Shown one piece after another: positions 4,641-28,271 of a DNA stretch of 64,000 bases. The notes below the pieces were generated by a model that saw only the letters and a list, made by a program, of their open reading frames with translations, searched no databases and was not told where the DNA came from. Origin of the DNA: Escherichia phage alia; sequence record NC_052655.1; one strand, given 5' to 3'. Positions within the stretch are counted from its first letter, which is position 1; every line of letters starts with the position of its first letter. Made by a program: the position numbers and the translations under genes.

Positions 4641-4652
4641 TTAACTTTCTTA

Positions 4653-5111: not shown

Positions 5112-5127
5112 ATAACATTTCATACAA

Positions 5128-5153
5128 GGGCGCTTATTGCGCCCTTTCTTTTT
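5128..5153 (+). terminator. rho-independent terminator
   Basis: GGGCGC-TTATT-GCGCCC hairpin followed by TTTCTTTTT. Confidence 0.6.
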
Positions 5154-5357
5154 ACCTAAATAAAGATGATAGCTTTTACCTATCAAAAACGTTCACCGAA
5201 AAAAGTGAATAGATCGCGGTATCGAGCTAATCAAGGAGCAGATGAACAACCATACCATGAAGATCATAAGGCGCTTACAGCGTGTTTTAGACCGCTTATT
5301 TTTAATTTCTTCATGTAACTATCTGGCAAAAACAGCCTTTTTCTTGTCTTTCCTCTT

Positions 5358-6488: not shown

Positions 6489-6604
6489 TATTTGAGGGGG
6501 ACGGTCGGCAGAAATCGGGGGGCGCTGAAAATCGCGTTAAGCACCTCTCGCAAGCGAGCAGTATTTTGCGGCAAGTTATTGATATTATTGACTTTACGCT
6601 TATG

Positions 6605-12378: not shown

Positions 12379-12608
12379 ACATCGGACAACCAATTTTTGA
12401 TGCAGATACTGGTCAATATGCAGTGATTGTTGCTCGTATGAGCGGTGATGACCTTATTGTTTCAGAACTACTCGGATCAGATCCGCAACTGCGCGTAGTA
12501 TGTGACCTATATCTTCGAGACGAAAGTGATCGCATTGCACTGAAAGAAGATGGTATGCTCTACTACACCTGGACTAGAGATCCTGGAGTAACGGAGGTAG
12601 AGGTATAA
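12369..12608 (+). CDS. hypothetical protein (79 aa)
   Basis: ORF track; AAGGAGACAAC upstream. Confidence 0.5.
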   Translation: MQLNIGQPIFDADTGQYAVIVARMSGDDLIVSELLGSDPQLRVVCDLYLRDESDRIALKEDGMLYYTWTRDPGVTEVEV

Positions 12609-12907
12609 TGGTAAGGAATAGGGGTTTACATAAAAGAAGACACCTTACTTACTGGCATCGTAAAGTACATGAACCTGTATCAAAGAAAGAATGGCAATAT
12701 CTGCCTTATGGGAAGGAGCGAAGAAAGTATTTGTTAGCTCATTTAAGGGTACATGGTTCTCTTCCTGTTAACAGTAAGTGGCAATTGCAAACAGCTTATG
12801 ACGAAGATATGAAATATCTGTTAAAGAGAGGCATTATTTGCCTTGTTAAGATCGGACGATGGAAATCTCGTCAATCTTATATCGTACTTAAACAGGAGAA
12901 ACGATGA
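12608..12907 (+). CDS. hypothetical basic protein (99 aa)
   Basis: ORF track; GGAGGTAGAGG upstream; K/R-rich. Confidence 0.5.
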   Translation: MVRNRGLHKRRHLTYWHRKVHEPVSKKEWQYLPYGKERRKYLLAHLRVHGSLPVNSKWQLQTAYDEDMKYLLKRGIICLVKIGRWKSRQSYIVLKQEKR

Positions 12908-13838: not shown

Positions 13839-14045
13839 GAGTAGTAAGTAAGGTATAAAGAGTATATAGTTAGTTATAGAGTTAGTAACATTACATATAC
13901 TCTTTCCATGTATAACATGGAATATTCTCTACCTCGCTATCGCTCGGTATATAAGATTAGGGTAGCATGTTTTTTACGAAAAGTAAAACTGTTTATACCG
14001 ATTGATAGCAGGTTTTTAATAGATTTTATCTATGAGGAGTAGAAA

Positions 14046-15966: not shown

Positions 15967-16566
15967 ATGAAAGAATATTGGAGTGGTGAGAAGGGCTTGC
16001 TAAAGCCAGGGATGCTTTTGCGAGTAAAGAACATGTTGATCACACAAGATTACATAATGCCTAATCCTGGAGCATTAGTAGAATTCCTTACTGCGCGAGA
16101 TCAACCTGGGGTTGGTGAAATGTGGATTGTAACGTGGATATCTCTCGATAGTAAATTGCGCGTTGCTCCTATTGACCCAAAACACTTGGAATCTCCTTAC
16201 GCCAGCATTGATTCTCGGATCATAGATTTGGCTAGAGTTTATAAGGCTAGGACTGGTGTAGAATTAGATGTAGAAATTTTAAATCAATGTATTGACTTCT
16301 TACCTGAAAAAGTGCATAATGCACAACAAGAAGATAGCAGTTTAGAAGTTATTCTTCTGAATGATGGGATGTTCTCTGGTTTGGCATCTGTAGATTTTCC
16401 AATAACATTAAGATTGTTACCTGGAGAATACGTACTAGATGAAGATACTATTGCTATATCCTCTAAAATTTTAGAACTCATTCCAGGTGCAAGGTGTGTT
16501 GGTGATACATCTTCCTTGCTGTTTACTCTGAATGAAGAAGCCGTTATAGTTAAAAAGGAGAAGTAA
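15967..16566 (+). CDS. hypothetical protein (199 aa)
   Basis: ORF track; AGCAGGAG RBS. Confidence 0.6.
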   Translation: MKEYWSGEKGLLKPGMLLRVKNMLITQDYIMPNPGALVEFLTARDQPGVGEMWIVTWISLDSKLRVAPIDPKHLESPYASIDSRIIDLARVYKARTGVELDVEILNQCIDFLPEKVHNAQQEDSSLEVILLNDGMFSGLASVDFPITLRLLPGEYVLDEDTIAISSKILELIPGARCVGDTSSLLFTLNEEAVIVKKEK

Positions 16567-16671
16567 ATGATGACGTTTATTGTTGGTGTTGTTGTTGGTT
16601 ATTTTGGTCACAAGTATCAGGATGTTATCATCGCTAAAGTTGACGAAGTAATCGAAAAATTTAAACACTAA
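16567..16671 (+). CDS. small membrane peptide (34 aa)
   Basis: Not in ORF track. ATG directly after upstream stop with AAGGAGAAG upstream; translation MMTFIVGVVVGYFGHKYQDVIIAKVDEVIEKFKH. Confidence 0.35.
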   Translation: MMTFIVGVVVGYFGHKYQDVIIAKVDEVIEKFKH

Positions 16672-16722
16672 TTTTCTAAAAGGCTGTACTATTGTGCAGC
16701 CTATCTTTCAAAGGAGAGTAAA

Positions 16723-16896
16723 ATGTTCAAAGATACCAATTATAAATGTGTACATTGTGGTAAATCTTTTGGTGATCACCAAGCTAAGACGTTCAATTGT
16801 CCACGAAAAGGGCGAGGTAGCTTTAAAGGTTTTAATCCATCCCACGTTTATTCTCCCAACTACGAGAAACCAGAAGAAGAAAAATTTGTAATCTGA
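16723..16896 (+). CDS. small Cys-pair protein (57 aa), possible zinc-ribbon
   Basis: AAGGAGAG 6 nt upstream of ATG 16723; translation MFKDTNYKCVHCGKSFGDHQAKTFNCPRKG... has CxxC plus a third Cys. Preferred over the overlapping track ORF 16694..16891 (different frame, no RBS). Confidence 0.45.
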   Translation: MFKDTNYKCVHCGKSFGDHQAKTFNCPRKGRGSFKGFNPSHVYSPNYEKPEEEKFVI

Positions 16897-16905
16897 GGAG
16901 GCAAT

Positions 16906-17193
16906 ATGGAACTAGTACAAGAAGTTTATGAAAAACTAAAAGAAGAGAATCTTGATTGGCCTGAACATGCTCTTATTGTCGTCAAAGATACTAATGGTGA
17001 AATAAAATTCTCAAGTGTAAGTGAAGACGATGTTGTTTTAAGTCCTACAGGATATTATATGAGAGGTGTTACGTGTCTATTCAACACCAAAGTGTATCCT
17101 GAAGTTAAACTTAGTTACGGTGAACCTGATCATCCAGAAATCGTTACACGTAATGAATATGAAAATTATTATTTTGCTCGTGAAAGCAAATAA
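16906..17193 (+). CDS. hypothetical protein (95 aa)
   Basis: ORF track; GAGGAGG RBS. Confidence 0.55.
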   Translation: MELVQEVYEKLKEENLDWPEHALIVVKDTNGEIKFSSVSEDDVVLSPTGYYMRGVTCLFNTKVYPEVKLSYGEPDHPEIVTRNEYENYYFARESK

Positions 17194-17201
17194 GGAAAAC
17201 T

Positions 17202-17525
17202 ATGCAAAAAATAAACACTGGTTCTCGTCCTAAACAGAAGCAAACAAAAGCAAGGGTATCTTATGTTGATAACTCTTGTTATAATTTTAAAAATGTTAAA
17301 GAAGTCATCATTGACGAAAAAGAAGGTTTGATTCACATTTCATCTGAACGTTTGAAAGGTAGTGTTACTCTTCGTGAGAATGTATCTATACCTATGAAAG
17401 TTGTGGTTACACTCTGTGTTGATAAGCCAGATGTTGTTAACTATTATGTGTTCCGTGATAGTTGTATTTCATCACATAATAAGATTTTTAAATCTTCGCA
17501 CGTTAAAACAAAACACATTGTATAA
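17202..17525 (+). CDS. hypothetical protein (107 aa)
   Basis: ORF track; AAGGAAAACT upstream; followed by terminator. Confidence 0.55.
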   Translation: MQKINTGSRPKQKQTKARVSYVDNSCYNFKNVKEVIIDEKEGLIHISSERLKGSVTLRENVSIPMKVVVTLCVDKPDVVNYYVFRDSCISSHNKIFKSSHVKTKHIV

Positions 17526-17531
17526 CACATA

Positions 17532-17553
17532 AACCCGCTTCGGCGGGTTTTCT
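17532..17553 (+). terminator. rho-independent terminator
   Basis: AACCCGC-TTCG-GCGGGTT hairpin followed by TTCTTG. Confidence 0.5.
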
Positions 17554-17610
17554 TGTATGTATGCTCTTTATCTGTTATAAACACTTTTAGCATAAACAAT
17601 AGGAGGTATT

Positions 17611-17832
17611 ATGTCTGTAGTTGTAGAAGGTAGTATTGGTTTCTTAGTAGATAATCCTCACCCTTTCGTGGTTAAGGTTCATATTCAAGAAAAGGTAAGC
17701 AACAATACGTGGCTGTGCTTGTTAGATAGTAAGATACACTCTTATACAGAGGTTTATCTTCACACTTGGCAAATTGGTACAATAACAGCAGAGGATGAAT
17801 TGATAATTGAACTATATGAACGAGATCTATAG
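17611..17832 (+). CDS. hypothetical protein (73 aa)
   Basis: ORF track; AGGAGG RBS. Confidence 0.5.
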   Translation: MSVVVEGSIGFLVDNPHPFVVKVHIQEKVSNNTWLCLLDSKIHSYTEVYLHTWQIGTITAEDELIIELYERDL

Positions 17833-17910
17833 ATGACTTTACTAGAGAGTATTGTAGTGTTAATCATCTTTATCATTATTGTCATAGGATATTTTACAGA
17901 AGACTAAAAT

Positions 17911-17946
17911 AAAGCCCCTAGAAGCGATTCTAGGGGCTTTTGTTTG
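17911..17946. terminator. bidirectional rho-independent terminator at the plus/minus strand switch
   Basis: GCCCCTAG-AAGCGATT-CTAGGGGC hairpin flanked by an A-run upstream and a T-run downstream; sits between convergent gene ends 17832(+) and 18008(-). Confidence 0.6.
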
Positions 17947-18007
17947 CATTAGGTAGGGAAACGTATTACTAGAATAAAAAGTGCGTTAGAATGCGTTACA
18001 GGAGGTT

Positions 18008-18265
18008 TTAAGAATGCATAAAATCTTCTTCAGGGCAGGTTGAGAGATAAGAGATGCACGTTGGGACAACAACAACATTATCTTTAAGGTTTTCAACCAA
18101 GCCTTTTGTAATCCCAGCCACTGCCCCGTTAATATCTGCTTGACGGATACCAAAGCCTTGTTGTGCGGATAGATAACAAAATCCCTCACCTTTCTGTTGA
18201 TTGTTATTGAAGTAATAAACGTAGTGCATCATAAAATGGTCTTTAACGATTTGCTCTGTGGTCAT
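18008..18265 (-). CDS. hypothetical protein (85 aa)
   Basis: ORF track; minus-strand AGGAG RBS upstream of ATG; last gene of the minus-strand block. Confidence 0.5.
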   Translation of the reverse strand: MTTEQIVKDHFMMHYVYYFNNNQQKGEGFCYLSAQQGFGIRQADINGAVAGITKGLVENLKDNVVVVPTCISYLSTCPEEDFMHS

Positions 18266-18282
18266 AATATTCTCCTATAAGA

Positions 18283-18300
18283 AAAGGGGCTTTCGCCCCC
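18283..18300 (-). terminator. rho-independent terminator (GGGGCTTTCGCCCC family)
   Basis: Minus-strand RNA would form GGGGGCGAAAGCCCC followed by UUUU; downstream of the Sir2-like gene. The same core recurs at 29567 and 42655. Confidence 0.5.
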
Positions 18301-18309
18301 TTGGTTAAG

Positions 18310-19122
18310 TTATTTAGTCAAATGATCTTCTATCATTTTTATGAAAGCAGGATTGCTAAAAGCATCTGCGGCTTTTTCTCGATAAACAAAGACTCCTCTA
18401 TCTTCGTAAAGAAGAGTTTCTTCGTAATTAATTCCTGGGTTAACAACAATCATTTTTGTACCCATATTAAGTGCAGGGAATAATTCCCAATTAAAATTAA
18501 TAACTTGGTTTGAACATCCTACTACAACAACCAAATCTTGCATGGTCAAAGTATCAAACAAGTGAGCCATATCTGCATACAAAGGTGCAGCCTCACCAAA
18601 AAATACAACATTAGGCTTCACCCAGTTATAATCATCTATGTTTATATTGTTGTAACCGATATCTACCAGTGTCTTGTAATCTCCAGGATGCATACGATAA
18701 ACTACTTCAGGAAGATATCCGTGCACGTGAATAACAGAATTTCTGTCTACACCTGCTCGCTCTAGTAGATCATCAACGTTTGTTGTCAAGTTTACTATTT
18801 GGTTAGGATATTCCTTAAACCACTTTGCTATTTGAATATGTGCAGCATTAGGTTGTACATCTTTAAGCTCAACACGTCTTTTGTTATAAAATTCGTGTGT
18901 TTTGGCATACAAATCCATACCGTTTTCGTCTACACCACCAACCACTGGAAGATCTGGAGATGTTCTCACACGATAACCTGCTTGGAAAGCTCCAATATCG
19001 CAGATCTCTTCTAAATCATATTCTTCCCATAAAGCACGACCACTATCTGTGTCTGTTCGGAATGTTCGAATCCCACTGTCTGCACTTAAACCTGCGCCAC
19101 TGACAAAAATTACTCTTCGCAT
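18310..19122 (-). CDS. Sir2-family NAD-dependent deacylase/ADP-ribosyltransferase-like protein
   Basis: N-terminus VIFVSGAGLSADSGIRTFR matches the Sir2 Rossmann signature GAGIS-x3-GIP-x-FR; 270 aa. Confidence 0.7.
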   Translation of the reverse strand: MRRVIFVSGAGLSADSGIRTFRTDTDSGRALWEEYDLEEICDIGAFQAGYRVRTSPDLPVVGGVDENGMDLYAKTHEFYNKRRVELKDVQPNAAHIQIAKWFKEYPNQIVNLTTNVDDLLERAGVDRNSVIHVHGYLPEVVYRMHPGDYKTLVDIGYNNINIDDYNWVKPNVVFFGEAAPLYADMAHLFDTLTMQDLVVVVGCSNQVINFNWELFPALNMGTKMIVVNPGINYEETLLYEDRGVFVYREKAADAFSNPAFIKMIEDHLTK

Positions 19123-19664
19123 TCAATATCCTCTTCGTAATCATCATACCAAGAAGATGCGTCGTAACGCTCTTCCTCTTCGAAATCCCAATTAATTTCT
19201 ACTCCAAAATCTAAAAACAATTTAACAATGTTTTCTGTAGAGTAGTATTTATCATAAGCATTAGCTAGTTCCCAATACTTATCACTCAATTTTTTATAAT
19301 TAGGATCATTGTAATCATGAGCTACTTTATCACCATAATCATACATCTCTTCTTCAGCTTTAAGCATAGCTTCTGGTGTAAGAAGATTAGGGAACGGACG
19401 ATTTCTTTCTTTTAACTTAGAAGCAATCCAGTTTGCAACATTCGCCACTTCACCATCTCGATTATCACCTAAACAACTTGCATAATCTCCATCTTCGTAA
19501 GTGCCTAAATCCCCACTGACTTCATGTACAATAGATGAATACGATCCACACGTTTCACAATCTGAAAAAGTGTCTACTGTTGTAATATCAATAGATAAAA
19601 CTGGTAAAGCCATAGCTTCTTTCACACAAGCCTCCTCATATAATAACATATCATCAAAACCCAT
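19110..19664 (-). CDS. hypothetical acidic protein (184 aa)
   Basis: ORF track 19110..19679 (TTG start); ATG 19664 with GGAGGA RBS chosen. Very acidic, Tyr/Asp/Glu-rich. Confidence 0.5.
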   Translation of the reverse strand: MGFDDMLLYEEACVKEAMALPVLSIDITTVDTFSDCETCGSYSSIVHEVSGDLGTYEDGDYASCLGDNRDGEVANVANWIASKLKERNRPFPNLLTPEAMLKAEEEMYDYGDKVAHDYNDPNYKKLSDKYWELANAYDKYYSTENIVKLFLDFGVEINWDFEEEERYDASSWYDDYEEDIECEE

Positions 19665-19682
19665 ATATCCTCCAGACAAATA

Positions 19683-19702
19683 AAGCCCCTGGTTGGGGCT
19701 TT
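19683..19702 (-). terminator. rho-independent terminator candidate
   Basis: AAGCCCC-TGGTT-GGGGCTT hairpin; minus-strand transcript has a U-rich tail; the RBS of the next gene follows. Confidence 0.4.
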
Positions 19703-19718
19703 GGTTAAGTTTTATGGA

Positions 19719-20330
19719 TTATACCAGACTTTTAAGGTACTTGTCAAGGGCTTCTTGATCACCTTGACAAACATAGCAACGGAAGTCTTGAGCAGAAGGT
19801 TCTTTATCCTCTTCCCAATCCCAATAGACAGTACCTTTATAGCGTGAGCCTGGGAACTCGAAGTATGCTACATGGGTAATATGGTGTGGGCCACCCCAAA
19901 ACTCTGTAAAAGTAAATTGAGGATACGCTGCTTTAACTGTATTTTCAAACCAAGTTTTACGATCTAATGCTTCGTTTATAAAATAAGCATGGCGTTCCAT
20001 TTCATCCCAATCTTTCCAAACGCATTTTTCATCCAGAGAAAAAACAAAATTCTCACTGTTAAAATCGTCTGTATCTGATTCCAAAATATCATAATCATGT
20101 GCGCTAGGTATCCACCATCCAGCTTCTAATAGGGCTTTCGCAGGTACAAAACCTTTTTCAGCGTATTGATCAAATTCTTTTACTCTACGTACAGTGCAGT
20201 ATTCATCTTCACCACCAATATCCAGTATACAAGCGCCTTTGCGTCTTGCTGCAAGACCATGTGTATCAAAAACTACAACACTACCTTCACCATCTTCACG
20301 ATCTACTTGATATGCAACTTTTTGAGTCAT
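19719..20330 (-). CDS. hypothetical protein (203 aa)
   Basis: ORF track. Confidence 0.55.
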   Translation of the reverse strand: MTQKVAYQVDREDGEGSVVVFDTHGLAARRKGACILDIGGEDEYCTVRRVKEFDQYAEKGFVPAKALLEAGWWIPSAHDYDILESDTDDFNSENFVFSLDEKCVWKDWDEMERHAYFINEALDRKTWFENTVKAAYPQFTFTEFWGGPHHITHVAYFEFPGSRYKGTVYWDWEEDKEPSAQDFRCYVCQGDQEALDKYLKSLV

Positions 20331-20453
20331 ATTACCCCCAATGTATATGGGAAATTAACCAAAAGATAAATTCCCAAAAACACCAACCAAGAAAAGTTAA
20401 TGGAATTATAAAAGCTATCAGAGCAGTCTTCCAGCCTTTCCACAATGTTTCCA

Positions 20454-21443
20454 TCATTCCTCCATACACTTAAGAATATGTGCAATGACAGGTATAGTCC
20501 AACCATTACCTAACATCTTATATGCTTGTGTGTTACTACTCACTTTAAAGTAATCATCAGGAACACCTTGCAAGCGGCAACACTCTTTAACCGTTAACTT
20601 TCTATAATGTACACCTTCACTCAATTTTTCAAAGGCATCCAGATATCTTCCAGGTGGAATGTAAGCTAATAGTACGTCTTTCGGCACAGTCGTGAGGCAA
20701 CGAGTTTTTTCACTGTCCTGAACTTCCAAGCAATGTACCAAACGATCAGTTTTAGATGTACTACGTTTGCCATTTTCATTAATTCTACGCCCATATATTG
20801 CTGCTGGATAAAAAACCAGTTGTCTGCGACTCTTTTCAAAATATTGTTCTATATTACCACCTTTGGCATAATTTGCATCTATGCAATAAGCCTTATCCCT
20901 GTCTACAATACTATCATCTTCAATGATATCTTGCAACACTTCATTGGTAATATCCCAAGGTTTTATTTCCCAATTGCACCAGTATAAACGTTGTCTATTC
21001 TGTGCAGTGAAATCTGCGGAGTTAATGAATACGGGATCAACACCTAAGTAACTTGTGATCACGTTTTCCCACTCCACCTTCATCTTAACGTTTTCAAGCA
21101 TGAACTTAACATTAGGGTTAAACTTTTTAATATGTTCAAGAATTTCAACATATTCAAAGAACAGTTTAGATCGCGGATCTTGAAAGTTCAAACCCTTACC
21201 AGAAGAAGAGAAGCCTTGGCACGGGCTACCACCTAACAAAAGATCAATTTCTCCCCACGGGATATCCCATTCTCTCCATTTTGTAACATCACCTAATTGA
21301 ATAATATCTGGAAAATTGGCTTGGCTTTCAGCTATGGCAAATTTATCCAATTCTGAGGCATAATACTTATCTACTTCAATACCTGCACTTTTTAGTGCAA
21401 GCATTCCTCCTGACATACCATCAAAAAGACTTAAAACTTTCAT
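20454..21443 (-). CDS. DNA cytosine-5 methyltransferase
   Basis: Motif I LSLFDGMSGG (FxGxG), motif IV GGSPCQGFSSSG (PCQ), motif VI ENV, motif VIII QNRQRLYW and motif X GNGWTIPV seen in order in the translation. Confidence 0.85.
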   Translation of the reverse strand: MKVLSLFDGMSGGMLALKSAGIEVDKYYASELDKFAIAESQANFPDIIQLGDVTKWREWDIPWGEIDLLLGGSPCQGFSSSGKGLNFQDPRSKLFFEYVEILEHIKKFNPNVKFMLENVKMKVEWENVITSYLGVDPVFINSADFTAQNRQRLYWCNWEIKPWDITNEVLQDIIEDDSIVDRDKAYCIDANYAKGGNIEQYFEKSRRQLVFYPAAIYGRRINENGKRSTSKTDRLVHCLEVQDSEKTRCLTTVPKDVLLAYIPPGRYLDAFEKLSEGVHYRKLTVKECCRLQGVPDDYFKVSSNTQAYKMLGNGWTIPVIAHILKCMEE

Positions 21444-21856
21444 TATTGCTTCTTCTCCTTAACACTAGCTGGTAATTCTGCCTTAAGGCAGAAGTTTAAA
21501 CGGTAAGCCTCATTTTCATTTAAAAGTACAGATTCACACGACAACCAGAACAAGAGATCCTCAATACTAGGACTGTGAAGCCAACAGTGCAGAAGAGAAT
21601 GTTGTTCTATATCAATGTAATTTAGCAACAAGCCTTGTAAGGCGTAACTAGTTCCTGTCGTTTTTGCTTTTTCAAGGATGATATTGTGTTTACTAACAAC
21701 CTTCTTTCTAAGACCAAACCATTTACTAACAACAACAGTTTCTTCTTGTAGTTGTTTTCTTATTTTCTCACATTCTTTAACTACAATCTGCATCTTATCC
21801 ACTGCTGATTGAAGTTGTTCTTTTGTTGGGTTTACAAAATAGTCACTATAATACAT
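21443..21856 (-). CDS. hypothetical protein (137 aa)
   Basis: ORF track; ATGA-type overlap with the MTase gene. Confidence 0.5.
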   Translation of the reverse strand: MYYSDYFVNPTKEQLQSAVDKMQIVVKECEKIRKQLQEETVVVSKWFGLRKKVVSKHNIILEKAKTTGTSYALQGLLLNYIDIEQHSLLHCWLHSPSIEDLLFWLSCESVLLNENEAYRLNFCLKAELPASVKEKKQ

Positions 21857-21879
21857 GCTAATCTCCTCTTCTGTTTTTG

Positions 21880-21935
21880 TGTAGTTTATTCGAAAAGACT
21901 GGTGTTGTCAACAAAAAACCCGCCGAAGCGGGTTT
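21880..21935 (-). promoter_or_regulatory. intrablock terminator hairpin followed by candidate minus-strand promoter
   Basis: Minus-strand AACCCGC-TTCG-GCGGGTT plus U-run (plus 21911-21935), then minus-strand TTGACA, 17-nt spacer, TAAACT within plus 21880-21910. Confidence 0.4.
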
Positions 21936-21938
21936 ATA

Positions 21939-22196
21939 TTATTCTACAGGAATTTCTTCACCAAGAGAAACTTCCAAACGGAATGCTTTACTTTCAATAC
22001 ATTCACTACCTTTTAAGAAATCGAATTGCACTATAGACTGACTTAATAGAATAGATAGAATCACATCGCAATCTTCACTAGGAGCCAGATGTTTGTATTC
22101 TTCCTTCAAGGTAACATCATAAAAACATAAATCCCCTACTCCTAGTTCATCCCATCCTTCCCACGCATCTACAAAGTTAAACTCTAAACCTTTCAT
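21939..22196 (-). CDS. hypothetical protein (85 aa)
   Basis: ORF track. Confidence 0.5.
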   Translation of the reverse strand: MKGLEFNFVDAWEGWDELGVGDLCFYDVTLKEEYKHLAPSEDCDVILSILLSQSIVQFDFLKGSECIESKAFRLEVSLGEEIPVE

Positions 22197-22717
22197 ACAA
22201 CCTCCTCGTAATTGTTATTGTGTTTTACTGTCTCAACATACAATAAAGATTCCATCTGTAAGACATTACCAGAAATAATAAACCCATAAGCCATTTCAGA
22301 TGTGTCTATATCATACGCCCCGTCTTCCGGTTTGGCAAAGTGTAAAACTATTTCATCTGGGTTTTCTTCATCCCATATTTTAGAAATTTTCCGAACCAGA
22401 ATATTAGCTAAAATAGTTGACATTCGGGATAAAGCTGTATCCTCGTATCTTTTAAAACCTAACCAATAGAGATTAAGAATTTCTACTTCTTCTTGTGTTA
22501 AGTTTTTGTCTAAAGTAATCAGATCTGTAGGATACATCGTTTTTGTTGAATCTACTATTACAAAACCTGGAGTGTTATGAAAAACAATCTTAACTTTATC
22601 ACGTATGAAGTTTAAACCTTGTGCCTCAACTATGTATTGTATTGTAGGTACAATATCGTTTGTTACATCAATAAAGCTATCTTTAATGACGCTTATATTA
22701 TTTCTGGACAAGACCAT
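22193..22717 (-). CDS. hypothetical protein (174 aa)
   Basis: ORF track. Confidence 0.55.
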   Translation of the reverse strand: MVLSRNNISVIKDSFIDVTNDIVPTIQYIVEAQGLNFIRDKVKIVFHNTPGFVIVDSTKTMYPTDLITLDKNLTQEEVEILNLYWLGFKRYEDTALSRMSTILANILVRKISKIWDEENPDEIVLHFAKPEDGAYDIDTSEMAYGFIISGNVLQMESLLYVETVKHNNNYEEVV

Positions 22718-23276
22718 TCTCCTCTAAAATAGGTTTAATAAATTCGAAGATTTGTTTTTTACTTTTACCTCGAATATTAAAACAAGGAACATTAAACTTT
22801 TTAGCCAACATCCAAGCTGTTCTTGTACCACCTAAAGGATCTCCATTTTTATCTGTATTTGCACAAGCTAAAAGAAAACAAGATGGTTTTGGATTCTCAA
22901 GATCTCTGCCAAGAACTTGGTGGATATTCCTTTGATGTAATTTTTTAGCACCTTGGGATAATCTGTCCCAAGCTGGATGCAATTCTTTTGCATATTGCAA
23001 AGTTAGAGCATAGTTCACACTGTCTGGTCTGTCAAGAACAATAACCTCTCCCTCTATCTCATTACCTTTAAACGAAGGCCAAGGAATGTATATTTCTTTC
23101 TTTGTATTGTTTCCACTATCATATACCCCGCATTCAAATGCGGAATCTGCACCTTCTGCTTTACCAGATCGCAAAATGAACCATGTAGATAACCATTTTG
23201 CAACAGCTACCATAGTGTCCCATTCTTCGTCTGTAATATCTCTGCTACCAACACCTGTGTAGAATAAATCGCTCAT
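22698..23276 (-). CDS. SLOG/DprA-like Rossmann-fold protein
   Basis: ORF track 22698..23393; start moved to the internal ATG (MSDLFYTGVGSRD...). GxGSR...SGxAxGADxA pattern resembles the DprA/Smf/LOG (SLOG) nucleotide-binding fold. Confidence 0.45.
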   Translation of the reverse strand: MSDLFYTGVGSRDITDEEWDTMVAVAKWLSTWFILRSGKAEGADSAFECGVYDSGNNTKKEIYIPWPSFKGNEIEGEVIVLDRPDSVNYALTLQYAKELHPAWDRLSQGAKKLHQRNIHQVLGRDLENPKPSCFLLACANTDKNGDPLGGTRTAWMLAKKFNVPCFNIRGKSKKQIFEFIKPILEENGLVQK

Positions 23277-23607: not shown

Positions 23608-24353
23608 TAGTCCTCCTCTAAAGTAGAATAAAATTGTAACGTATTTGAATCATCAAAATATGCAAAGGTTAAATTACCATTGAAGCAAGATCCTGTATCC
23701 ATATATACCCTATTACTGCTAATTACAGGTTTAGGAACATAAGAATGCCCGTGAAATACATAATCTACTCCTGAAACTCTAGGAAGAAGAATCCCTTCAA
23801 GGGCGCAATCTATCATATCACGATCCCACATTAAAGATTCTGTGAATCGAGATACTTGTTCTTTATTCATATTCGAACAAAATGGCAAAACTTCCGTCAC
23901 TGGTAGATGTTCCAAAACTGAAGGATATCCTCCGTGAATAAAGCCTAGTTTCATATTACGATAATTGACAACAAGTACAACAGGTAAGTCTTCTAGCATC
24001 AAAGCAAGAGCAGTTGCACCTTCTTCTCCACACTCGTTTAGAACTGTATGGCCTCCGTTCTGAAACCAACATTCGTAATATCGCCTATCACCTTCTAGCA
24101 ACCCTTTAATCATCATATCTTCGTGATTTCCACGAATAGCATAGCGATTTAGCTTTCTGGTGAATTCAACGGTACAACGAAAATTCTGCTTGCCGCGATC
24201 TGTAAGATCTCCTAAAGATACAACAACATCTTGATCTCGAATACCTAAAGTATTAACACCTTTCTGGTATAAATCAAAGCAACCATGTAAATCACCAATA
24301 ATAAACAGGTCTTGATCATCTTTTACACTAATTTCTTGATATACTAGCATCAA
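23607..24353 (-). CDS. Ser/Thr protein phosphatase (calcineurin-like metallophosphatase, PPP family)
   Basis: GDLHG, GDLTDRG and GNHE metal-binding motifs in canonical order and spacing. Confidence 0.8.
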   Translation of the reverse strand: MMLVYQEISVKDDQDLFIIGDLHGCFDLYQKGVNTLGIRDQDVVVSLGDLTDRGKQNFRCTVEFTRKLNRYAIRGNHEDMMIKGLLEGDRRYYECWFQNGGHTVLNECGEEGATALALMLEDLPVVLVVNYRNMKLGFIHGGYPSVLEHLPVTEVLPFCSNMNKEQVSRFTESLMWDRDMIDCALEGILLPRVSGVDYVFHGHSYVPKPVISSNRVYMDTGSCFNGNLTFAYFDDSNTLQFYSTLEED

Positions 24354-24676
24354 CTCTCCTCAAAATCCATAAGTATAAAGATATTAACTTTACCTTCTAT
24401 ATTATGTTCTACAACAAGATCTGCAAATTCTTTGTAGGCTTTTTCTTCTATTTGTTCAATGTGAGACGCTACATCTTTGTATATAGCGTCACCATCTACT
24501 TTAACAAGGAGGAATAGAGATCTTACCTCAATCTCTTTATTTTTGCGGGGTAGAAAATCGACGGCTTCTTGTATACGCCAGCCGAGATACCCTGGAGTCC
24601 TTTGAATATCCTCCAAATGACTTTCTAAGATTTCCCTTCCTTTGTCTATTAAAGCCTGTTCTGTCGTTATTTTCAT
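24350..24676 (-). CDS. hypothetical protein (108 aa)
   Basis: ORF track; ATGA overlap. Confidence 0.5.
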   Translation of the reverse strand: MKITTEQALIDKGREILESHLEDIQRTPGYLGWRIQEAVDFLPRKNKEIEVRSLFLLVKVDGDAIYKDVASHIEQIEEKAYKEFADLVVEHNIEGKVNIFILMDFEES

Positions 24677-24686
24677 CCCCTTCTCC

Positions 24687-25259
24687 TTAATGTGTTAATG
24701 AAACTGCGTAACTAAACACAGGTTCAGATATTACATCGGCTACAGTAATAAAAACGTCCTCATCTTGCGTTGTTTCTACACGACATACAGTTACACCATT
24801 TACTACAAATTCAACGCAATGTGGAATATCTTCACAAACGAATGTAGTGTAAGTAACACCCAAAGCATCATACAAAGATTTAACAGTATTTGCAAGTGCC
24901 GCAGTTTCTTCTTTTTCTGAGACAATGAATGCTGTAACAACAAGATTGTTTGCATAGTTTAGACTGTCCTCTATAGCCAATGATTTACAAGGTAGTAATG
25001 CAAAATATTTACCTGGTTTAATCAGACCTGCTTCCCATTGATTCAAAATTGCCTGGGATGGTTTAGTAATATAAAACAGATTTTCACTTGGGTTATCAAT
25101 ATTACTTCTGGCGATACAACGTGAAGGATTATTAATATCAAACACATGATCAAAATCTACACAAACTGGTAAACTGAAAGGTGTAAATTTTTTACCTAAT
25201 AATCCTACTGCTGACAATATGTTTGCTGTGCTTATCTTCCCGTTAAAAGCTAAACGCAT
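24687..25259 (-). CDS. hypothetical protein (190 aa)
   Basis: ORF track. Confidence 0.55.
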   Translation of the reverse strand: MRLAFNGKISTANILSAVGLLGKKFTPFSLPVCVDFDHVFDINNPSRCIARSNIDNPSENLFYITKPSQAILNQWEAGLIKPGKYFALLPCKSLAIEDSLNYANNLVVTAFIVSEKEETAALANTVKSLYDALGVTYTTFVCEDIPHCVEFVVNGVTVCRVETTQDEDVFITVADVISEPVFSYAVSLTH

Positions 25260-25270
25260 ATTTAACTCCT

Positions 25271-25474
25271 TTAACTAGCAACCGTAACTTCCGAACTTTC
25301 TTCTTTCGTACTGTCTACGATATGCCTGGTGGCAATATACGAGACTTGCCAGTTACCATCTGGTGTAGTCTCAATAAGTACCCTATCTACTTCGAGAAAA
25401 TGCAAAAATTCAACCATCGCTCGCTTCGATAGGAATTGTTTTTTAACAGTCTCCTCAAAAGATTGAACTGCCAT
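25271..25474 (-). CDS. hypothetical protein (67 aa)
   Basis: ORF track. Confidence 0.45.
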   Translation of the reverse strand: MAVQSFEETVKKQFLSKRAMVEFLHFLEVDRVLIETTPDGNWQVSYIATRHIVDSTKEESSEVTVAS

Positions 25475-25483
25475 GTTTCCTCC

Positions 25484-26146
25484 TTATTTAATATTCAATT
25501 TTGCACAAAGACGTTGTACCGCTTTGGCATCGAACAAACTCCCACGAATAGTTCTCTTTCCTGATTCATTCAGATGCTTTGCAATCGTCATATATGGCGT
25601 TTTACAAGCTCTGTATGCAACTAAAGAATCTTTTAAAGAAAGTGCAAACTCTTTTGAGCGTTTTGCTTCTTCCGTTTTCGTATAATCTGTTCTTTTGTAT
25701 TTAGGGTTTGCTGCACCAAGAAGCGTTCCCTTCGCTTTTGCTACCTTAAGGCTCTTCTTAACACGATCAGATATTGCACGAGCCTCTTCTTCTGCCAGAA
25801 CTGCTAAAATATTTATTATCATATTTTCAGCGGAGGGCATAGTGGCTATCCGTACATTAATCATCTCTAACAAGGTTGCAACAGAAGCTGTGTTACGTCC
25901 AAGACGGTCAACCTTAGCAACAACAAGTGTAGCACCTGTTTCTTTGCAAAGATTAACAGCTTTTACAAGCTCTCTACGTTGCTTCCAATCGCCTTTACCA
26001 GAATAAAACTCTGCAAAGCTACCTACAATAGTATAATTTTCTTGTGAATCCAGGAAGCGTTGGATATCTGCTTCCTGTGATTCTATACCATACTGGTTGC
26101 CTTGTTGTTTCTTCTTAGAAAGTCGATGATACAGTACAAACTTCAT
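25484..26146 (-). CDS. serine recombinase (resolvase/invertase family) with C-terminal HTH
   Basis: ORF track 25484..26200; start moved to ATG 26146 (AGGAGG upstream). Catalytic YHRLSKKKQ (Y-x-R-x-S) and ATLVVAKVDRLGRN motifs. Confidence 0.7.
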   Translation of the reverse strand: MKFVLYHRLSKKKQQGNQYGIESQEADIQRFLDSQENYTIVGSFAEFYSGKGDWKQRRELVKAVNLCKETGATLVVAKVDRLGRNTASVATLLEMINVRIATMPSAENMIINILAVLAEEEARAISDRVKKSLKVAKAKGTLLGAANPKYKRTDYTKTEEAKRSKEFALSLKDSLVAYRACKTPYMTIAKHLNESGKRTIRGSLFDAKAVQRLCAKLNIK

Positions 26147-26203
26147 AATACCCTCCTGTTCTGTTGCAGGAAGTATGCACGACCTTAACGCTAAAGTCAA
26201 CAG

Positions 26204-26407
26204 TTAAGTAGTGGTAATATCATCTTCTTGAATATCAGGGTCAACTTCTGCAAAGATAGCCTCTACAGGAATTTCTTCACCTGCTATTCTAGAAAGAAGC
26301 ACTGAACCAATAGCTTTTGCGTGTTCTTCGGATTCCGCATAAACATTAGTTCCTGTGTCTTTTTTCTTAGTTTCGTTAAAATATACCAGATAGTAATTGT
26401 ATGCCAT
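26204..26407 (-). CDS. hypothetical protein (67 aa)
   Basis: ORF track. Confidence 0.45.
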   Translation of the reverse strand: MAYNYYLVYFNETKKKDTGTNVYAESEEHAKAIGSVLLSRIAGEEIPVEAIFAEVDPDIQEDDITTT

Positions 26408-26658
26408 TATTCATCCCAATCGTTGTTGCGAGCACTTTCAAGAACCTTGACAACTTCTGCGTACTCTACAGCTAAACCAGCACACACTTCAGCTTGTTTT
26501 GCAATTGCTTGCTTAAAGAACATAGCGATTGCAACACTCTGTGTTGTGTGAATGTTATCTGCTTTAGTTGATACATGAAGATCAAAATCTTCTTCATCAA
26601 AGGTGAGTTCCATAGTAACAATAAATTTCTCGGTCATAAAAATGCTCCTCTTAAACAA
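26407..26658 (-). CDS. hypothetical protein (83 aa)
   Basis: ORF track. Confidence 0.45.
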   Translation of the reverse strand: MFKRSIFMTEKFIVTMELTFDEEDFDLHVSTKADNIHTTQSVAIAMFFKQAIAKQAEVCAGLAVEYAEVVKVLESARNNDWDE

Positions 26659-27160
26659 AATAGAAAGGTTGAGTTAAACCCAGCCTGTTTTTTGGGTCGT
26701 AGACGTACCAAGCATATGCTGTCTTATCAGTACCACCTGCAACAAAAGATGGTCGTTCAGAAAGAACAATCAAATTTGTTGGTGGGTTCTGTTTATGGAA
26801 TTCCCTTCGTTTAATAGACTCTAGGAATCCAAGACGCAACAAGTATATGCAAACGTCTGCTTCTTTTAAGCTCTTTTGCAAGAACTCAAGTGCAAGTCTG
26901 AATGGTGGATTTGTGATTATAATATCCGGCTTAGTATGCCATTCGTGGTTAAAATAATCCTTCCCCTCTTCTAACTCACAATATTCTGATCCTTCTGGAA
27001 AATGTTGATAAATTGCAGCAGCAGCGCCTTTACACGGTTCTGCAAAAATAAAACCTTCTTCTTTAAGGTTATTAAAATCTATTACACTAAATAATGCATT
27101 TATACATTTTTGTGGAGTAGGATAGTAATCAGTTGGTGGACGATCATACTTATTTGCCAC
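26651..27160 (-). CDS. DNA N6-adenine (or N4-cytosine) methyltransferase, small
   Basis: DYYPTP near N-terminus and TNPPF (D/NPPY/F catalytic motif IV) in a 169-aa protein. Confidence 0.65.
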   Translation of the reverse strand: MANKYDRPPTDYYPTPQKCINALFSVIDFNNLKEEGFIFAEPCKGAAAAIYQHFPEGSEYCELEEGKDYFNHEWHTKPDIIITNPPFRLALEFLQKSLKEADVCIYLLRLGFLESIKRREFHKQNPPTNLIVLSERPSFVAGGTDKTAYAWYVYDPKNRLGLTQPFYFV

Positions 27161-27578
27161 TACTTAAAATCTCCTCTTTTGTGATTTCAGGGTTTTCTTC
27201 AAAAACCATAATATCTCTTAAGAATGTTAATTCTTCCATAGATACTGGTATTGTATCTTCTTCTGTTTTTCGTTTACATAAGTCGTCAAGAAAGTTTTTA
27301 ACGCTTTCTGACACATCGTAAAATTTCAACAGTTGATAATCACAGGAGGAGATCCTATCTAGTTCTAACATTCTTTCTAAGATATTTTCTGTGTTGCCGT
27401 ACAACACACGAACTTCTCCGAAAGGGTTGACTAAATATTGTGAAGTTCTGAACCATCCCTTTTTAGATACAGTGTAACGCTGTTCTGCTAAACTTTCAAT
27501 AAAATTTTTAGCCCTTTTACAGTTTTGTTCTAAAGAGTAGTAGGCTTTTTCTACAAAGATTACAGGTACTGGTAACAT
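27150..27578 (-). CDS. hypothetical protein (142 aa)
   Basis: ORF track. Confidence 0.5.
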   Translation of the reverse strand: MLPVPVIFVEKAYYSLEQNCKRAKNFIESLAEQRYTVSKKGWFRTSQYLVNPFGEVRVLYGNTENILERMLELDRISSCDYQLLKFYDVSESVKNFLDDLCKRKTEEDTIPVSMEELTFLRDIMVFEENPEITKEEILSSGK

Positions 27579-27617
27579 ATCTCCTCCTAATAACCCCGTG
27601 AGGGGGTTTATGTTAGA

Positions 27618-28271
27618 TTAATTATCAGAGGATACTTTATCAAGTTTTTCAGAGACTGTCAATACTTTTTCTTGTGATTCTTTCATTTCTGCTAAAATAC
27701 TTTCAGCTTCATCACTATCAGGATCACCAGTCAACAGCATACTAATTAGTTGCTCCTTGCTGAAGTTCAGAATATCTTCCGCTGTTAGCTCCAGTTGTTC
27801 TTCGATCTCTTCGACAAAAGTTTCACCGCCTGAAAAAGCATCTCGTAGTTTTGCAACTTCCATCGCTTCTTCTGGGGTTGCCCCAGCGTCTAAAGCTGCT
27901 AAAGCAAAATCTGCCCCACTACCAACAGCATAGTAATCTTCAGTTAAAGGATATGCTCGCGTTGGATTATTACCCTCGTGCATATAAATTTTACCGTCTG
28001 GGTGAACAACCAATGCCACAAACTCTTCATCTTCTTTATCAGGATCTGACTGGATCACCAAACCTGGGATTGTCTCTTGTGCTGCCTGGCACTGTAAGTT
28101 TTGTTCGAACCAAGAAAAGAAAGTCAGGATAGAAGACAGACGTCCTGCACCACCAACAAGGTAATCCCCAATTTTACGCACTTTCTTGAAATTTAAAGTG
28201 TCTACTCGATTACCTACTGTTACTTTACCATCAGATAGAATTTTGTTATGTGTTGCAATAATTGTTGTCAT
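27618..28271 (-). CDS. HslV-like N-terminal-threonine peptidase with acidic C-terminal extension
   Basis: Begins MTTIIA (Thr2 as candidate nucleophile, as in HslV MTTIVSV); KKVRKIG and AVGSGADFALAA align by eye with HslV KKVRRL and AIGSGGPYAQAA; acidic tail of about 50 aa. Confidence 0.6.
   Translation of the reverse strand: MTTIIATHNKILSDGKVTVGNRVDTLNFKKVRKIGDYLVGGAGRLSSILTFFSWFEQNLQCQAAQETIPGLVIQSDPDKEDEEFVALVVHPDGKIYMHEGNNPTRAYPLTEDYYAVGSGADFALAALDAGATPEEAMEVAKLRDAFSGGETFVEEIEEQLELTAEDILNFSKEQLISMLLTGDPDSDEAESILAEMKESQEKVLTVSEKLDKVSSDN

Follow-up and report, generated by a model that had tools for sequence, protein, structure and literature searches.

A conserved small serine recombinase with a large-serine-recombinase-type DNA-binding domain in phi92-like virulent myophages

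The window, a 64,000-nt stretch from Escherichia phage alia (NC_052655.1), is a Justusliebigvirus (phi92-like) genome. Sequence comparisons and a structure model indicate that its ORF at 25484 to 26146 is orthologous to Phi92_gp053 and encodes a genuine small serine recombinase, which is intact and very probably a functional enzyme. The recombinase is an ordinary, already annotated member of a known family, and its identification is not new, since many GenBank records carry the label "DNA invertase/resolvase/recombinase." What is added here is the type of its C-terminal domain, its fixed synteny and own promoter-like sequence down to approximately 50% identity, the purifying selection acting on it, and the restriction of its close relatives to phages. 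Our best guess about its role, a tentative one, is a resolution or cyclization reaction on the phage's own genome, which has short direct terminal repeats (DTR).

The recombinase gene and the domains of its product

The recombinase gene has exactly the coordinates given by an earlier, sequence-only reading. The mechanical ORF is longer (25484..26200, minus strand) and begins with TTG, but the true start is the ATG at 26146, because a Shine-Dalgarno sequence precedes it, all homologues have an equivalent Met, and a conserved promoter lies within the TTG extension. The features of the region are as follows.

25484..26146, minus strand: recombinase coding sequence, stop codon included, 220 aa according to the ORF list
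26146-25724, minus strand: catalytic domain and helix E (approximately aa 1 to 141)
26119-26117, minus strand: codon of Ser10
25909-25895, minus strand: D80-R81-L-G-R84
25678-25499, minus strand: C-terminal four-helix DNA-binding domain (aa 157 to 216)
26151..26157, minus strand (read 26157-26151): Shine-Dalgarno sequence AGGAGGG, read from the sequence, 4 nt ahead of the ATG at 26146
26172..26200, minus strand: sigma70-like promoter of the recombinase, with -35 TTGACT (26200-26195), a 17-nt spacer, and -10 CATACT (26177-26172)
26204..26407, minus strand: conserved 67-aa ORF directly upstream of the promoter, PHROG 15892, function unassigned
25271..25474, minus strand: conserved 67-aa ORF beginning 9 nt past the recombinase stop, weak match to PHROG 27804

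In Pfam, residues 4 to 141 matched PF00239 (Resolvase) with an E value of 8.4e-22 (78.3 bits; cut-off, 23.3). The protein matched PHROG 125, "DNA invertase" (E = 1.3e-31), and also PHROG 95, "integrase" (E = 1.5e-25). The motifs YHRLS (Y6, R8, and S10) and VDRLGRN (D80, R81, and R84), from which a small serine recombinase had been recognized, paired in an alignment with Y6/R8/S10 and D67/R68/R71 of gamma-delta resolvase. Further pairs were S49/S39, R57/R45, E121/E118, and R128/R125. No loss of a catalytic Ser or Arg was seen; these residues are intact in 35 relatives, in whose alignment the catalytic residues are invariant or nearly so. The AlphaFold2 model (mean pLDDT, 88.6) has an alpha/beta catalytic domain followed by a long helix E (residues 108 to 138) and a four-helix C-terminal domain (residues 157 to 216), and a Foldseek search with it retrieved at E <= 0.001 serine recombinases only, including Sin, gamma-delta, Bxb1, and PhiC31. 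Pfam, PHROG, the gamma-delta alignment, and the structure thus all bear out the assignment.

The C-terminal HTH noted earlier corresponds to a real DNA-binding domain, but it is of the large-serine-recombinase type and not of the Hin/resolvase type. PF07508, the large-serine-recombinase "Recombinase" domain, was matched by the C-terminal domain in 22 of 35 family members. The Hin/resolvase-type HTH_7 gave no match at E <= 1 for the window protein and was not among the Pfam families reported for the 35 members. With PF07508 in place of HTH_7, the narrow Hin/Tn3 label "resolvase/invertase type" does not hold. The best Foldseek match was the large serine recombinase Bxb1 (247 aligned columns), and the best NCBIfam match, far below threshold, was CcrB; a weak, sub-threshold likeness to the Mpi master invertase extended over nearly the full length (33.5 bits; cut-off, 272). 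We conclude that the C-terminal domain is a cut-down "Recombinase" domain of the large-serine-recombinase type, not a Hin/gamma-delta HTH, and that its four helices are homologous to the first part of this domain in large serine integrases.

What the window protein shares with the large serine recombinases (the Bxb1, PhiC31, TP901-1, and A118-type integrases and CcrB) is a catalytic domain followed by helix E and the initial helical part of the "Recombinase" domain, with an IAxxLNxxGxxTxxG-like motif. However, those enzymes have 450 to 600 aa instead of 220, and the window protein has neither the rest of their recombinase domain nor a zinc ribbon or coiled coil. With the Tn3, gamma-delta, and Sin resolvases and the Hin and Gin invertases, it shares the catalytic residues, the fold, and a similar size. 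These classical small serine recombinases have the classical Hin/resolvase HTH, whereas the window protein is PF07508-like; in the alignment with gamma-delta, it has 10 additional residues following the Ser10 motif, and its loop ahead of helix E is shorter. IS607-type transposases, in contrast, have an N-terminal MerR-like HTH and a TnpB partner, while the window protein is catalytic from residue 1. No TnpB was detected near the gene, the neighbors of which are small phage ORFs.

Conservation, synteny, and predicted expression

Phi92_gp053 and its Justusliebigvirus orthologues are the same gene, with 99 to 100% protein identity in 54 phage records, the same neighbors, and no difference. They are labeled variously, for example "DNA invertase" (PD06 gp191), "recombinase, resolvase family/DNA invertase" (ECGD1), and "putative site-specific recombinase" (PaulScherrer). 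The gene was found in every phi92-like and phAPEC8-like record examined. Furthermore, the protein search returned 105 "Escherichia" records, the same count as in two DNA searches of neighboring conserved regions, which is consistent with universal presence. The hosts of homologue-bearing phages are Escherichia, Klebsiella, Citrobacter, Pseudomonas, Shewanella, and Vibrio, and Cellulophaga phages also have homologues. Across genera, the position of the gene is fixed and syntenic, not patchy: the order PhoH, HslV, methyltransferase, 67-aa ORF, recombinase, 63-aa ORF, 190-aa ORF, phosphatase is kept, and broadly so even at 50 to 57% recombinase identity.

Comparison of five relatives (72 to 100% identity) yielded 128 codons for invariant residues, only 11 of which were identical in all five. 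Synonymous sites are thus saturated while the protein is held, a pattern indicating strong purifying selection. In line with this, the recombinase gene was the best-conserved stretch of its own neighborhood in a four-relative alignment. We conclude that the phi92-like and phAPEC8-like virulent myophages and their relatives inherit the gene vertically and keep it under strong constraint.

Relatives above approximately 41% identity were found in phages only. Outside phages, the closest relatives are plasmid-borne, full-length "recombinase family proteins" (34 to 36% identity), among them Marinovum pMaD11 (5.8 kb), Phaeobacter pP18_i (7.3 kb), and Synechococcus pIITB3_2 (6.4 kb), with many in Hymenobacter, Spirosoma, and Paracoccus. 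These small-plasmid proteins match the window protein in length and two-domain architecture over the full length. They are, however, only approximately 35% identical to it, reside on circular plasmids and not in a virulent phage, and have a putative function only. On pMaD11 and pP18_i (5.8 to 7.3 kb), Rep and ParA are the only other recognizable genes beside the recombinase, which places it in the maintenance backbone of these plasmids, and the neighborhood of Rep/ParA is the usual place of plasmid multimer-resolution genes. The plasmid relatives beside Rep and ParA suggest a resolution-type ancestry, "multimer resolution" being a reading of their context.

The intergenic space upstream of the recombinase gene comprises 57 nt. 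In a consensus promoter scan, the number of matches of this kind in the region was not by itself above chance; a TTGAC(A/T)-17/18-xAxAxT element was present just upstream of the gene in 8/8 diverged relatives inspected. In the four-relative alignment, little of the intergenic DNA was conserved besides the promoter hexamers and part of the ribosome-binding site. The predicted promoter is of the host sigma70 type, and the recombinase is therefore probably expressed early. In the literature, we found no transcriptome report for the phi92-like phage group. The 67-aa ORF upstream (26204..26407) accompanies the recombinase gene in relatives down to approximately 50% recombinase identity. The ORF downstream (25271..25474) is probably cotranscribed with it and might encode an accessory factor of the recombinase.

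Candidate substrates and roles

The resolution of concatemers or multimers, one of the two roles suggested by the sequence-only reading, is still our preferred guess, in the form of resolution or cyclization of the short-DTR genome. A recombinase dimer would synapse into a tetramer, which would cut both strands with a phosphoserine link, rotate its subunits, and religate. Two directly repeated copies of one short site in the phage DNA would thereby be joined. The site pair might lie at the two termini of the infecting genome, whose direct terminal repeats are 343 bp long, or in consecutive units of multimers formed during replication. Circular monomers would result, much as plasmid multimer-resolution systems and P1 Cre/lox generate them. 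Direct terminal repeats are annotated in phi92 (343 bp, corresponding to window positions 6198-6540) and were reported for BME3 (342 bp; PMC12210895) and FKP3 (317 bp; PMC11663894), which makes a site-specific route to a circle conceivable. Tn3-, gamma-delta-, Sin-, and beta-type resolvases reside on transposons or plasmids, whose multimers or cointegrates they resolve, whereas the window gene is in a virulent phage and only its distant relatives are plasmid borne. Three points of general background also count against resolution or cyclization: classical resolvases act on supercoiled circles only, T7-like phages, which have short terminal repeats, do not circularize in order to replicate, and packaging requires concatemers, not monomers.

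A more specific version seems distinctly unlikely. It holds that a strictly virulent phage makes the enzyme early and uses it in the manner of Cre/lox, recombining a site in or near the 343-bp repeats (6198-6540) and thereby circularizing the genome or cutting circular monomers from replicating DNA. P1 Cre/loxP, which is phage encoded, cyclizes a terminally redundant genome, and resolves multimers, can serve as a functional model only, since Cre is a tyrosine recombinase of an unrelated family and P1 is temperate and plasmid maintained. No lox-like site was identified in the window phage.

No res-like site, which for resolvases comprises several dimer-binding subsites and usually lies upstream, was found adjoining the recombinase gene or elsewhere. 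Upstream of the gene, where a res site might lie, little is conserved beyond the promoter hexamers. A site hidden inside the coding sequence was also rejected, as synonymous positions are saturated throughout and no suppressed stretch was seen. In noncoding footprinting, a comparison with the first 50 kb of Klebsiella phage KP13-26, whose recombinase is 78% identical, revealed conserved dyad-rich DNA only at the genome end. Crossover sites of serine recombinases have an even, 2-bp center. The dyads in the DTR are Fur-box-like (17/19 and 15/19 consensus matches) and have an odd center, and they were discarded as recombinase sites. The multi-hairpin element at 5785-5980, whose three or four dyads were considered as a possible res-like cluster, has odd centers as well; its unrelated arm sequences and its loops of 3 or 7 nt mark it as a set of stem-loops, not repeated protein-binding half-sites, and it had no Rfam match. 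A genome-wide scan for dyads with 12-nt arms detected 13 sites, which form no repeated family. In the phiWec187 record, a 148-bp sequence found at both ends corresponds to window 786-933; it lies off the terminal repeat of phi92 and BME3, and an assembly overlap is its probable origin. As far as the tools can see, there is thus no invertible or resolvable substrate site. This does not settle the matter, since a single short site in each genome would suffice for multimer resolution.

The second role suggested from the sequence alone, a DNA inversion switch, is disfavored, and we consider it highly improbable. As do Gin, Cin, Hin, and Mpi, the enzyme would flip a phage segment (tail-fiber genes or a promoter) for host range or expression. 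The name "DNA invertase" used by PHROG 125 and many GenBank records, the weak Mpi similarity, and the presence of many tail-fiber genes with a Mu S/U-like short-fiber pair (PMC8594841) would fit such a switch. However, no Hin-type C-terminal domain was detected in the recombinase, the tail-fiber genes are single copy, and an alternative S'/U' set is absent. Invertases of the Hin/Gin/Cin/Pin type act on two inverted crossover sites of ~26 bp that flank the invertible segment, usually next to the gene. A whole-genome self-comparison of the close relative PD06 revealed no inverted repeat fit for crossover sites, and the inverted repeats of the window gave the same picture, none being hix-like; the gene thus differs from those of classical small serine recombinases in having neither an adjoining res site nor hix-like inverted repeats. 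The only sizeable inverted repeats are ATPase paralogues and terminator hairpins. The sole long one in the genome (PD06 15307-15628/31687-32008) consists of paralogous ATPase genes with 67% identity. Identical 23-nt hairpins at 17529-17551 and 21915-21937 were rejected as inversion sites, being a convergent pair of intrinsic terminators that enclose 4.4 kb with one orientation in 54/54 relatives. The perfect 19-nt inverted pair at 24408-24426/60373-60391 is a coding coincidence (ADLVV(E/D) in unrelated genes) and is absent from relatives; the 47-nt inverted pair at 3947/5110 and further pairs at short range reflect terminator hairpins or chance matches. A double match of the tail region in phage J-01 was also followed up, and the 50-kb stretch there has the gene order and orientation of PD06, with no inversion. 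Row-by-row examination of three regions, namely, the tail-fiber region, the 16.5- to 23-kb region, and the gene's own region (24 to 28 kb), detected no orientation polymorphism among the 54 sequenced close relatives, all of which are collinear there. From 10.5 to 57.9 kb of the window, at least 50 of the 54 showed no large rearrangement, the criterion being one match that spans 80% or more of each 25-kb query; inversions below approximately 5 kb are invisible to this check. For stable isomers, inversion is largely refuted.

Integration is likewise disfavored and appears extremely improbable. On this view, an integrase or transposase would place the phage, or a small gene-bearing element, in the chromosome of a host or phage, and the outcome would be a hidden lysogen or a mobile cassette. 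The PHROG 95 match, the large-serine-integrase type of the DNA-binding domain, and the moron-like possession of its own promoter-like sequence point in this direction. Yet megablast of the 4 kb at window 24000-28000 against 5,426 complete E. coli genomes, plasmids included, gave no match, and 185,579 bacterial and archaeal species (one genome each) contained no relative above approximately 41% identity, both in agreement with the lytic look of the genome remarked on earlier. The syntenic position is fixed across genera, the catalytic domain is N-terminal, unlike in IS607 TnpA, and TnpB is not nearby. In large serine integrases, zinc-ribbon and coiled-coil domains set att-site choice and directionality; the 220-aa protein is without them. 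Those integrases have attP/attB and prophages, whereas neither an attachment site nor a prophage copy was found for the window phage.

Two further readings place the function elsewhere. The recombinase could rearrange or cut foreign DNA at some conserved site, be it on the chromosome of the host, on a plasmid or prophage residing there, or on a second phage infecting the same cell, and thus serve take-over, anti-defense, or exclusion. Its probable early expression from a host-type promoter fits this, as does its location within an accessory block of the take-over/counter-defense kind (Sir2, Dcm-like and N6 methyltransferases, DprA-like, HslV-like, PhoH, and Ser/Thr phosphatase), and the failure to find a site in the phage genome would agree with a target elsewhere. 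We nevertheless regard it as unlikely: we know of no precedent, a site shared by such diverse hosts would have to be very conserved, and PADLOC matched no defense-system family. That the protein no longer recombines DNA and has been domesticated to bind it for regulation, whether as a repressor or in an architectural role, is very doubtful. Resolvases such as Tn3 TnpR do repress their own promoters, and the missing substrate sites would suit a regulator, but the catalytic residues are all invariant or nearly so in relatives diverged to 30 to 50% identity, which is unexpected if binding alone mattered, and at the recombinase's own promoter, only the hexamers are conserved and no operator is visible.

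Implications for phi92-like phages

Recombinase and integrase genes are "temperate" warning flags in phage therapy screening. In the phi92-like/phAPEC8-like group, valued for its very broad host range, the recombinase is a predictable false alarm, because it is present in every such record examined and no sign of lysogeny was found. Its minimal architecture, a catalytic domain with a four-helix remnant, could also interest serine recombinase engineers. The related rV5-like phages, which are reported to be circularly permuted, appear to be without the gene; if the Cre/lox-like reading were true, it would explain retention of the recombinase in the short-DTR phi92/phAPEC8 lineage versus this apparent absence. 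The recombinase is strongly conserved and apparently catalytic in a virulent lineage, and its site would show whether short-DTR myophages pass via a circular intermediate.

Start, catalytic residues, and fold

The recombinase gene was called mechanically as a longer open reading frame (ORF).

25484..26200 (-), recombinase ORF, mechanical call with TTG start

The true start is an internal ATG at 26146, since inspection of the sequence revealed an AGGAGGG ribosome-binding site 4 nt 5' of it, the equivalent methionine is the first residue in all homologues of the family alignment, and the conserved promoter falls within the TTG extension. Thus, the coordinates 25484-26146, proposed from the sequence alone, are exact.

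The sequence-only reading had also recognized a serine recombinase by its catalytic motifs, and this was borne out by domain, alignment, and fold analyses. In the 220-aa product, residues 4-141 match Pfam PF00239 (Resolvase, N-terminal domain; E 8.4e-22; score, 78 bits; cut-off, 23 bits), and PHROG 125 (DNA invertase) matches with E 1.3e-31. The solved serine recombinases Sin, Tn3, gamma-delta, and Gin-type invertases are distant sequence relatives. In the alignment with gamma-delta resolvase, Y6, R8, S10, S49, R57, D80, R81, R84, E121, and R128 correspond to Y6, R8, S10, S39, R45, D67, R68, R71, E118, and R125, respectively. All ten positions, including the catalytic Ser and Arg residues, are fully or almost fully conserved in 35 relatives with identity down to 30%.

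An AlphaFold2 model built from the 35-relative alignment was confident (mean pLDDT, 88.6). In it, the alpha/beta catalytic domain is followed by a long helix E (108-138), and four helices make up the C-terminal domain (157-216). Foldseek against the PDB returned 26 matches at E <= 0.001, exclusively serine recombinases, with the large serine recombinase Bxb1 on top. For the sequence alone, the Pfam match is confined to the catalytic domain, and the best NCBIfam matches (CcrB, Mpi master invertase, and YneB) were all far below threshold. In a Pfam scan of the 35 family members, however, 22 matched PF07508 (Recombinase; best E, 3.3e-7), which in large serine integrases is the DNA-binding domain C-terminal to helix E, and HTH_7, the Hin/resolvase-type helix-turn-helix, was absent from the families reported. 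The C-terminal DNA-binding domain noticed earlier is therefore present, but not as a Hin/resolvase-type helix-turn-helix. Compared to gamma-delta resolvase, the protein has ~10 extra residues behind the Ser10 motif, and the loop leading to helix E is shortened. Unlike large serine integrases, it has neither the zinc ribbon nor the coiled coil, which give those enzymes site choice and directionality. The best description is that of a minimal serine recombinase, in which the catalytic domain is joined to the leading helical module of the DNA-binding domain of integrases.

Distribution, gene neighborhood, and promoter

The 4 kb around the gene are 95-99.6% identical to 54 phage records, nearly all of them from Escherichia phages in the phi92-like genus Justusliebigvirus (subfamily Stephanstirmvirinae). 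PD06 is a close relative, and its RefSeq record lists the gene as gp191, with the product name "DNA invertase" and the note "Phi92_gp053"; other records use "putative resolvase," "recombinase family protein," "putative site-specific recombinase," or "hypothetical protein." Since existing records already name it as invertase, resolvase, or recombinase, its identification as an annotated gene of a known enzyme family is public. Our literature search found no experimental work on the gene; two papers touch on such genes, but only in passing. A further paper, which places ESCO5 and ESCO37 in the phAPEC8-like group, states that no recombinase genes were predicted in these phages (PMC10269720); several phAPEC8-like records label the homologue merely "hypothetical protein."

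Among 5.8 billion proteins, 83 relatives were found, and those above ~45% identity sit on contigs of up to ~157 kb, i.e., phage genomes. A phage collection contained 160 records with a homologue: 54 at >=99% identity, 5 at 60-80% (including Klebsiella phage KP13-26, 78%), and 101 lower, among them phAPEC8-like (57%), Pseudomonas, Citrobacter, Shewanella, Vibrio, and Cellulophaga phages. The protein search and two DNA searches of flanking conserved regions each gave 105 Escherichia records, which fits the presence of the gene in every member of the group. At 72-88% identity, the gene order is PhoH, 16x-aa ORF, HslV-like peptidase, 14x-aa ORF, 169-aa methyltransferase, 67-aa ORF, recombinase, 63-aa ORF, 190-aa ORF, and Ser/Thr phosphatase, and this neighborhood is still recognizable at 50-57%. 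In five relatives, just 11 of the 128 codons for invariant residues are the same throughout; synonymous sites are saturated, whereas the protein is kept. The gene is functional and vertically inherited, rather than a recent mobile insertion or a decaying remnant.

The following features adjoin the gene.

26204-26407 (-), 67-aa ORF, upstream flank
26200-26195 (-), TTGACT, promoter hexamer
26177-26172 (-), CATACT, -10-like promoter hexamer
25271-25474 (-), 67-aa ORF, downstream flank, starting 9 nt past the recombinase stop
24687-25259 (-), 190-aa ORF, "histidyl tRNA synthetase" in RefSeq, PHROG 4806

Both small ORFs accompany the gene down to ~50% recombinase identity and evolve faster (66% and 45% identity versus 88% for the recombinase); they may encode accessory factors. 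The synthetase label looks unreliable, because 190 aa are far too short and the ORF has no Pfam match. PD06 carries a second 190-aa gene with this label, gp050, elsewhere in its genome. In a 135-kb metagenomic relative (L006; recombinase 50% identical), a 665-aa tailspike gene (3676-5673; Tail_spike_N, pectate-lyase fold) lies in the early region, far from the normal place of tail genes. It precedes the recombinase gene by ~330 nt, and the two are separated by a 64-aa ORF.

A TTGAC(A/T) motif, a spacer of 17-18 nt, and a -10-like hexamer precede the gene at constant distance in all eight diverged relatives inspected; a consensus scan by itself was not above chance, and the case for this promoter rests on its conservation. 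In a four-relative intergenic alignment, little is kept beyond the hexamers except part of the ribosome-binding site, and in one relative a terminator directly precedes the promoter. We infer transcription by unmodified host RNA polymerase, and expression is therefore probably early. No transcriptome data for this phage group were found in the literature.

Inversion, integration, and the search for a site

A serine invertase requires two inverted crossover sites, and an inversion switch, for example for host range, had been considered from the sequence alone. This idea is unsupported, since no crossover-type repeats were found and orientation is the same among relatives in the regions compared. 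PD06 is 97.8% identical to the window over 47 kb, all of it collinear. Its whole-genome self-comparison yielded one substantial inverted repeat, namely paralogous ATPase genes (67% identity), and otherwise palindromic terminators only. A scan for dyads with 12-nt arms gave 13 sites, mutually unrelated. In the window, a 19-nt perfect inverted pair (24408/60373) was rejected as a coding coincidence missing from relatives. A 23-nt perfect pair (17529-17551/21915-21937) consists of facing identical intrinsic-terminator hairpins at a strand-switch point; the 4.4-kb cassette between them, with Sir2 and Dcm-like methyltransferase genes, has the same orientation in 54/54 records. JohannJBalmer is ~2.1 kb shorter over window 16500-23000, and its record has no annotated methyltransferase there.

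A host-range switch would most obviously lie in the tail-fiber region, which is collinear in all 54 relatives. The few records with two tail-fiber matching places are mostly split at record ends; J-01, one of two whose best match is not cut by a record end, was collinear on checking. Over window 10.5-57.9 kb, at least 50 of the 54 records match each 25-kb query at a single place with >=80% coverage, a check blind to inversions below ~5 kb, and consensus assemblies cannot reveal rare isomers within a phage population.

Integration into the host genome is likewise disfavored. Megablast of the 4-kb region against 5,426 complete E. coli genomes and their plasmids gave no match. Among 185,579 bacterial and archaeal species (one genome each), there was no close relative, and a family-profile scan found nothing above ~41%, with matches in Planctomycetota, Verrucomicrobiota, and Alphaproteobacteria. 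Neither data set gave any sign of lysogeny or a plasmid-prophage state, in agreement with the lytic appearance of the genome noted previously. PADLOC matched no defense family.

Beside the gene, no site was found in the 57-nt intergenic space, where little is kept beyond the promoter hexamers, and inside it no stretch shows suppressed synonymous change. For multimer resolution or cyclization, one site per genome suffices. Conserved noncoding DNA was therefore sought by comparing the 45 intergenic gaps of the window with the first 50 kb of KP13-26. Besides terminators, promoters, and one 61-nt block, it is concentrated at the genome end. Elements noted there, that block, and a tRNA cluster noticed separately are as follows.

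5359-5371 and 5417-5429, further Fur-box-like copies, genome end
5785-5980, hairpin cluster, ~190 nt, noncoding, about 220-400 bp before the terminal repeat
6198-6540, terminal repeat, single copy, mapped from the 343-bp repeat of phi92
6271-6289, Fur-box match, 17/19 (very good), within the terminal repeat
6463-6481 (also given as 6463-6486), Fur-box match, 15/19 (very good), within the terminal repeat, in a block conserved in Klebsiella relatives
13929-13989, noncoding block, 61 nt, 93% identical to KP13-26 in an otherwise diverged early region
57271-59758 (+), single cluster of fifteen tRNA genes

The phi92 record annotates 343-bp direct terminal repeats (DTR-L/DTR-R). Because this repeat maps as a single copy, the window spans the joined physical genome ends, with the right arm at 1-6197 and the left arm from 6198. 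The repeat ends fall in Klebsiella-conserved blocks (TGTTGAGCC... at the left boundary and GAAAATCGCGTTAAGCACCTCTCGCAAGCGAGC at the right). Terminal repeats of 342 bp and 317 bp were reported for BME3 (PMC12210895) and FKP3 (PMC11663894), respectively. In phiWec187, 148-bp identical record ends correspond to window 786-933, not to the phi92/BME3 repeat; they probably stem from an overlap in the assembly and not from true termini.

Fur boxes were scored against the E. coli consensus, GATAATGATAATCATTATC; the core, AATGATAATCATT, occurs in three exact copies within 1 kb. These sites may point to regulation by iron or to a phage protein whose specificity resembles that of Fur. PD06 has a denser Fur-like array at 12500-12640, ~12.5 kb into the right arm and outside the window, followed by three AT-rich direct repeats with ~70-nt spacing; it looks origin-like. 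The hairpin cluster contains four or five perfect or near-perfect hairpins within a long-range stem (single-stranded DNA folding, -43 kcal/mol versus -20 for shuffles; z = -8.4). Parts are 87-96% conserved in KP13-26, and Rfam gave no match; the cluster may serve as a packaging signal or an origin, or encode a noncoding RNA. Crossover sites have even centers, built around a 2-bp overlap, and the subsites of res have a half-site consensus in common. The Fur-like dyads were rejected as recombinase sites by their odd-numbered centers, and the cluster by its odd centers and mutually unrelated arms. Gene flank, gene interior, and the 45 gaps thus yielded no candidate substrate.

Favored reaction and significance

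The catalytic residues are conserved, which argues that recombination matters. We infer that standard serine-recombinase chemistry applies: dimers would synapse into a tetramer, which would cleave both strands through phosphoserine links, and a 180-degree subunit rotation would precede religation. Since these residues are kept while inversion and integration are disfavored, we tentatively favor a resolution or cyclization reaction on phage DNA. The closest cellular relatives, which look like plasmid resolution genes, also point this way, as do the short terminal repeats, which a site-specific enzyme could join. The best matches in a plasmid collection are full-length, 34-36% identical, and annotated "recombinase family protein"; several sit on very small plasmids. 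In Marinovum pMaD11 (5.8 kb) and Phaeobacter pP18_i (7.3 kb), Rep and ParA are the sole other recognizable genes, and this is the usual setting of a plasmid multimer-resolution recombinase; the remaining genes of Synechococcus pIITB3_2 (6.4 kb) carry no annotation. From this context, the plasmid relatives may be multimer-resolution recombinases, and their setting is the sole positive hint on the reaction type of the subfamily.

Against resolution or cyclization, no site was found, T7 and similar phages with short direct terminal repeats do not circularize, and concatemers are required for packaging. Action on a target outside the phage genome is a serious rival, albeit an unlikely one, and the remaining probability belongs to something not thought of. 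The original observation of the enzyme is correct, and its interpretation is right in part: resolution is possible, and inversion is unsupported.

In summary, the recombinase is intact and strongly constrained, has a minimal integrase-like architecture, and is fixed in a virulent phage lineage. Beyond its public identification, this analysis contributes negative evidence on both inversion and integration, the reassignment of the DNA-binding domain, and data on conservation and the promoter.
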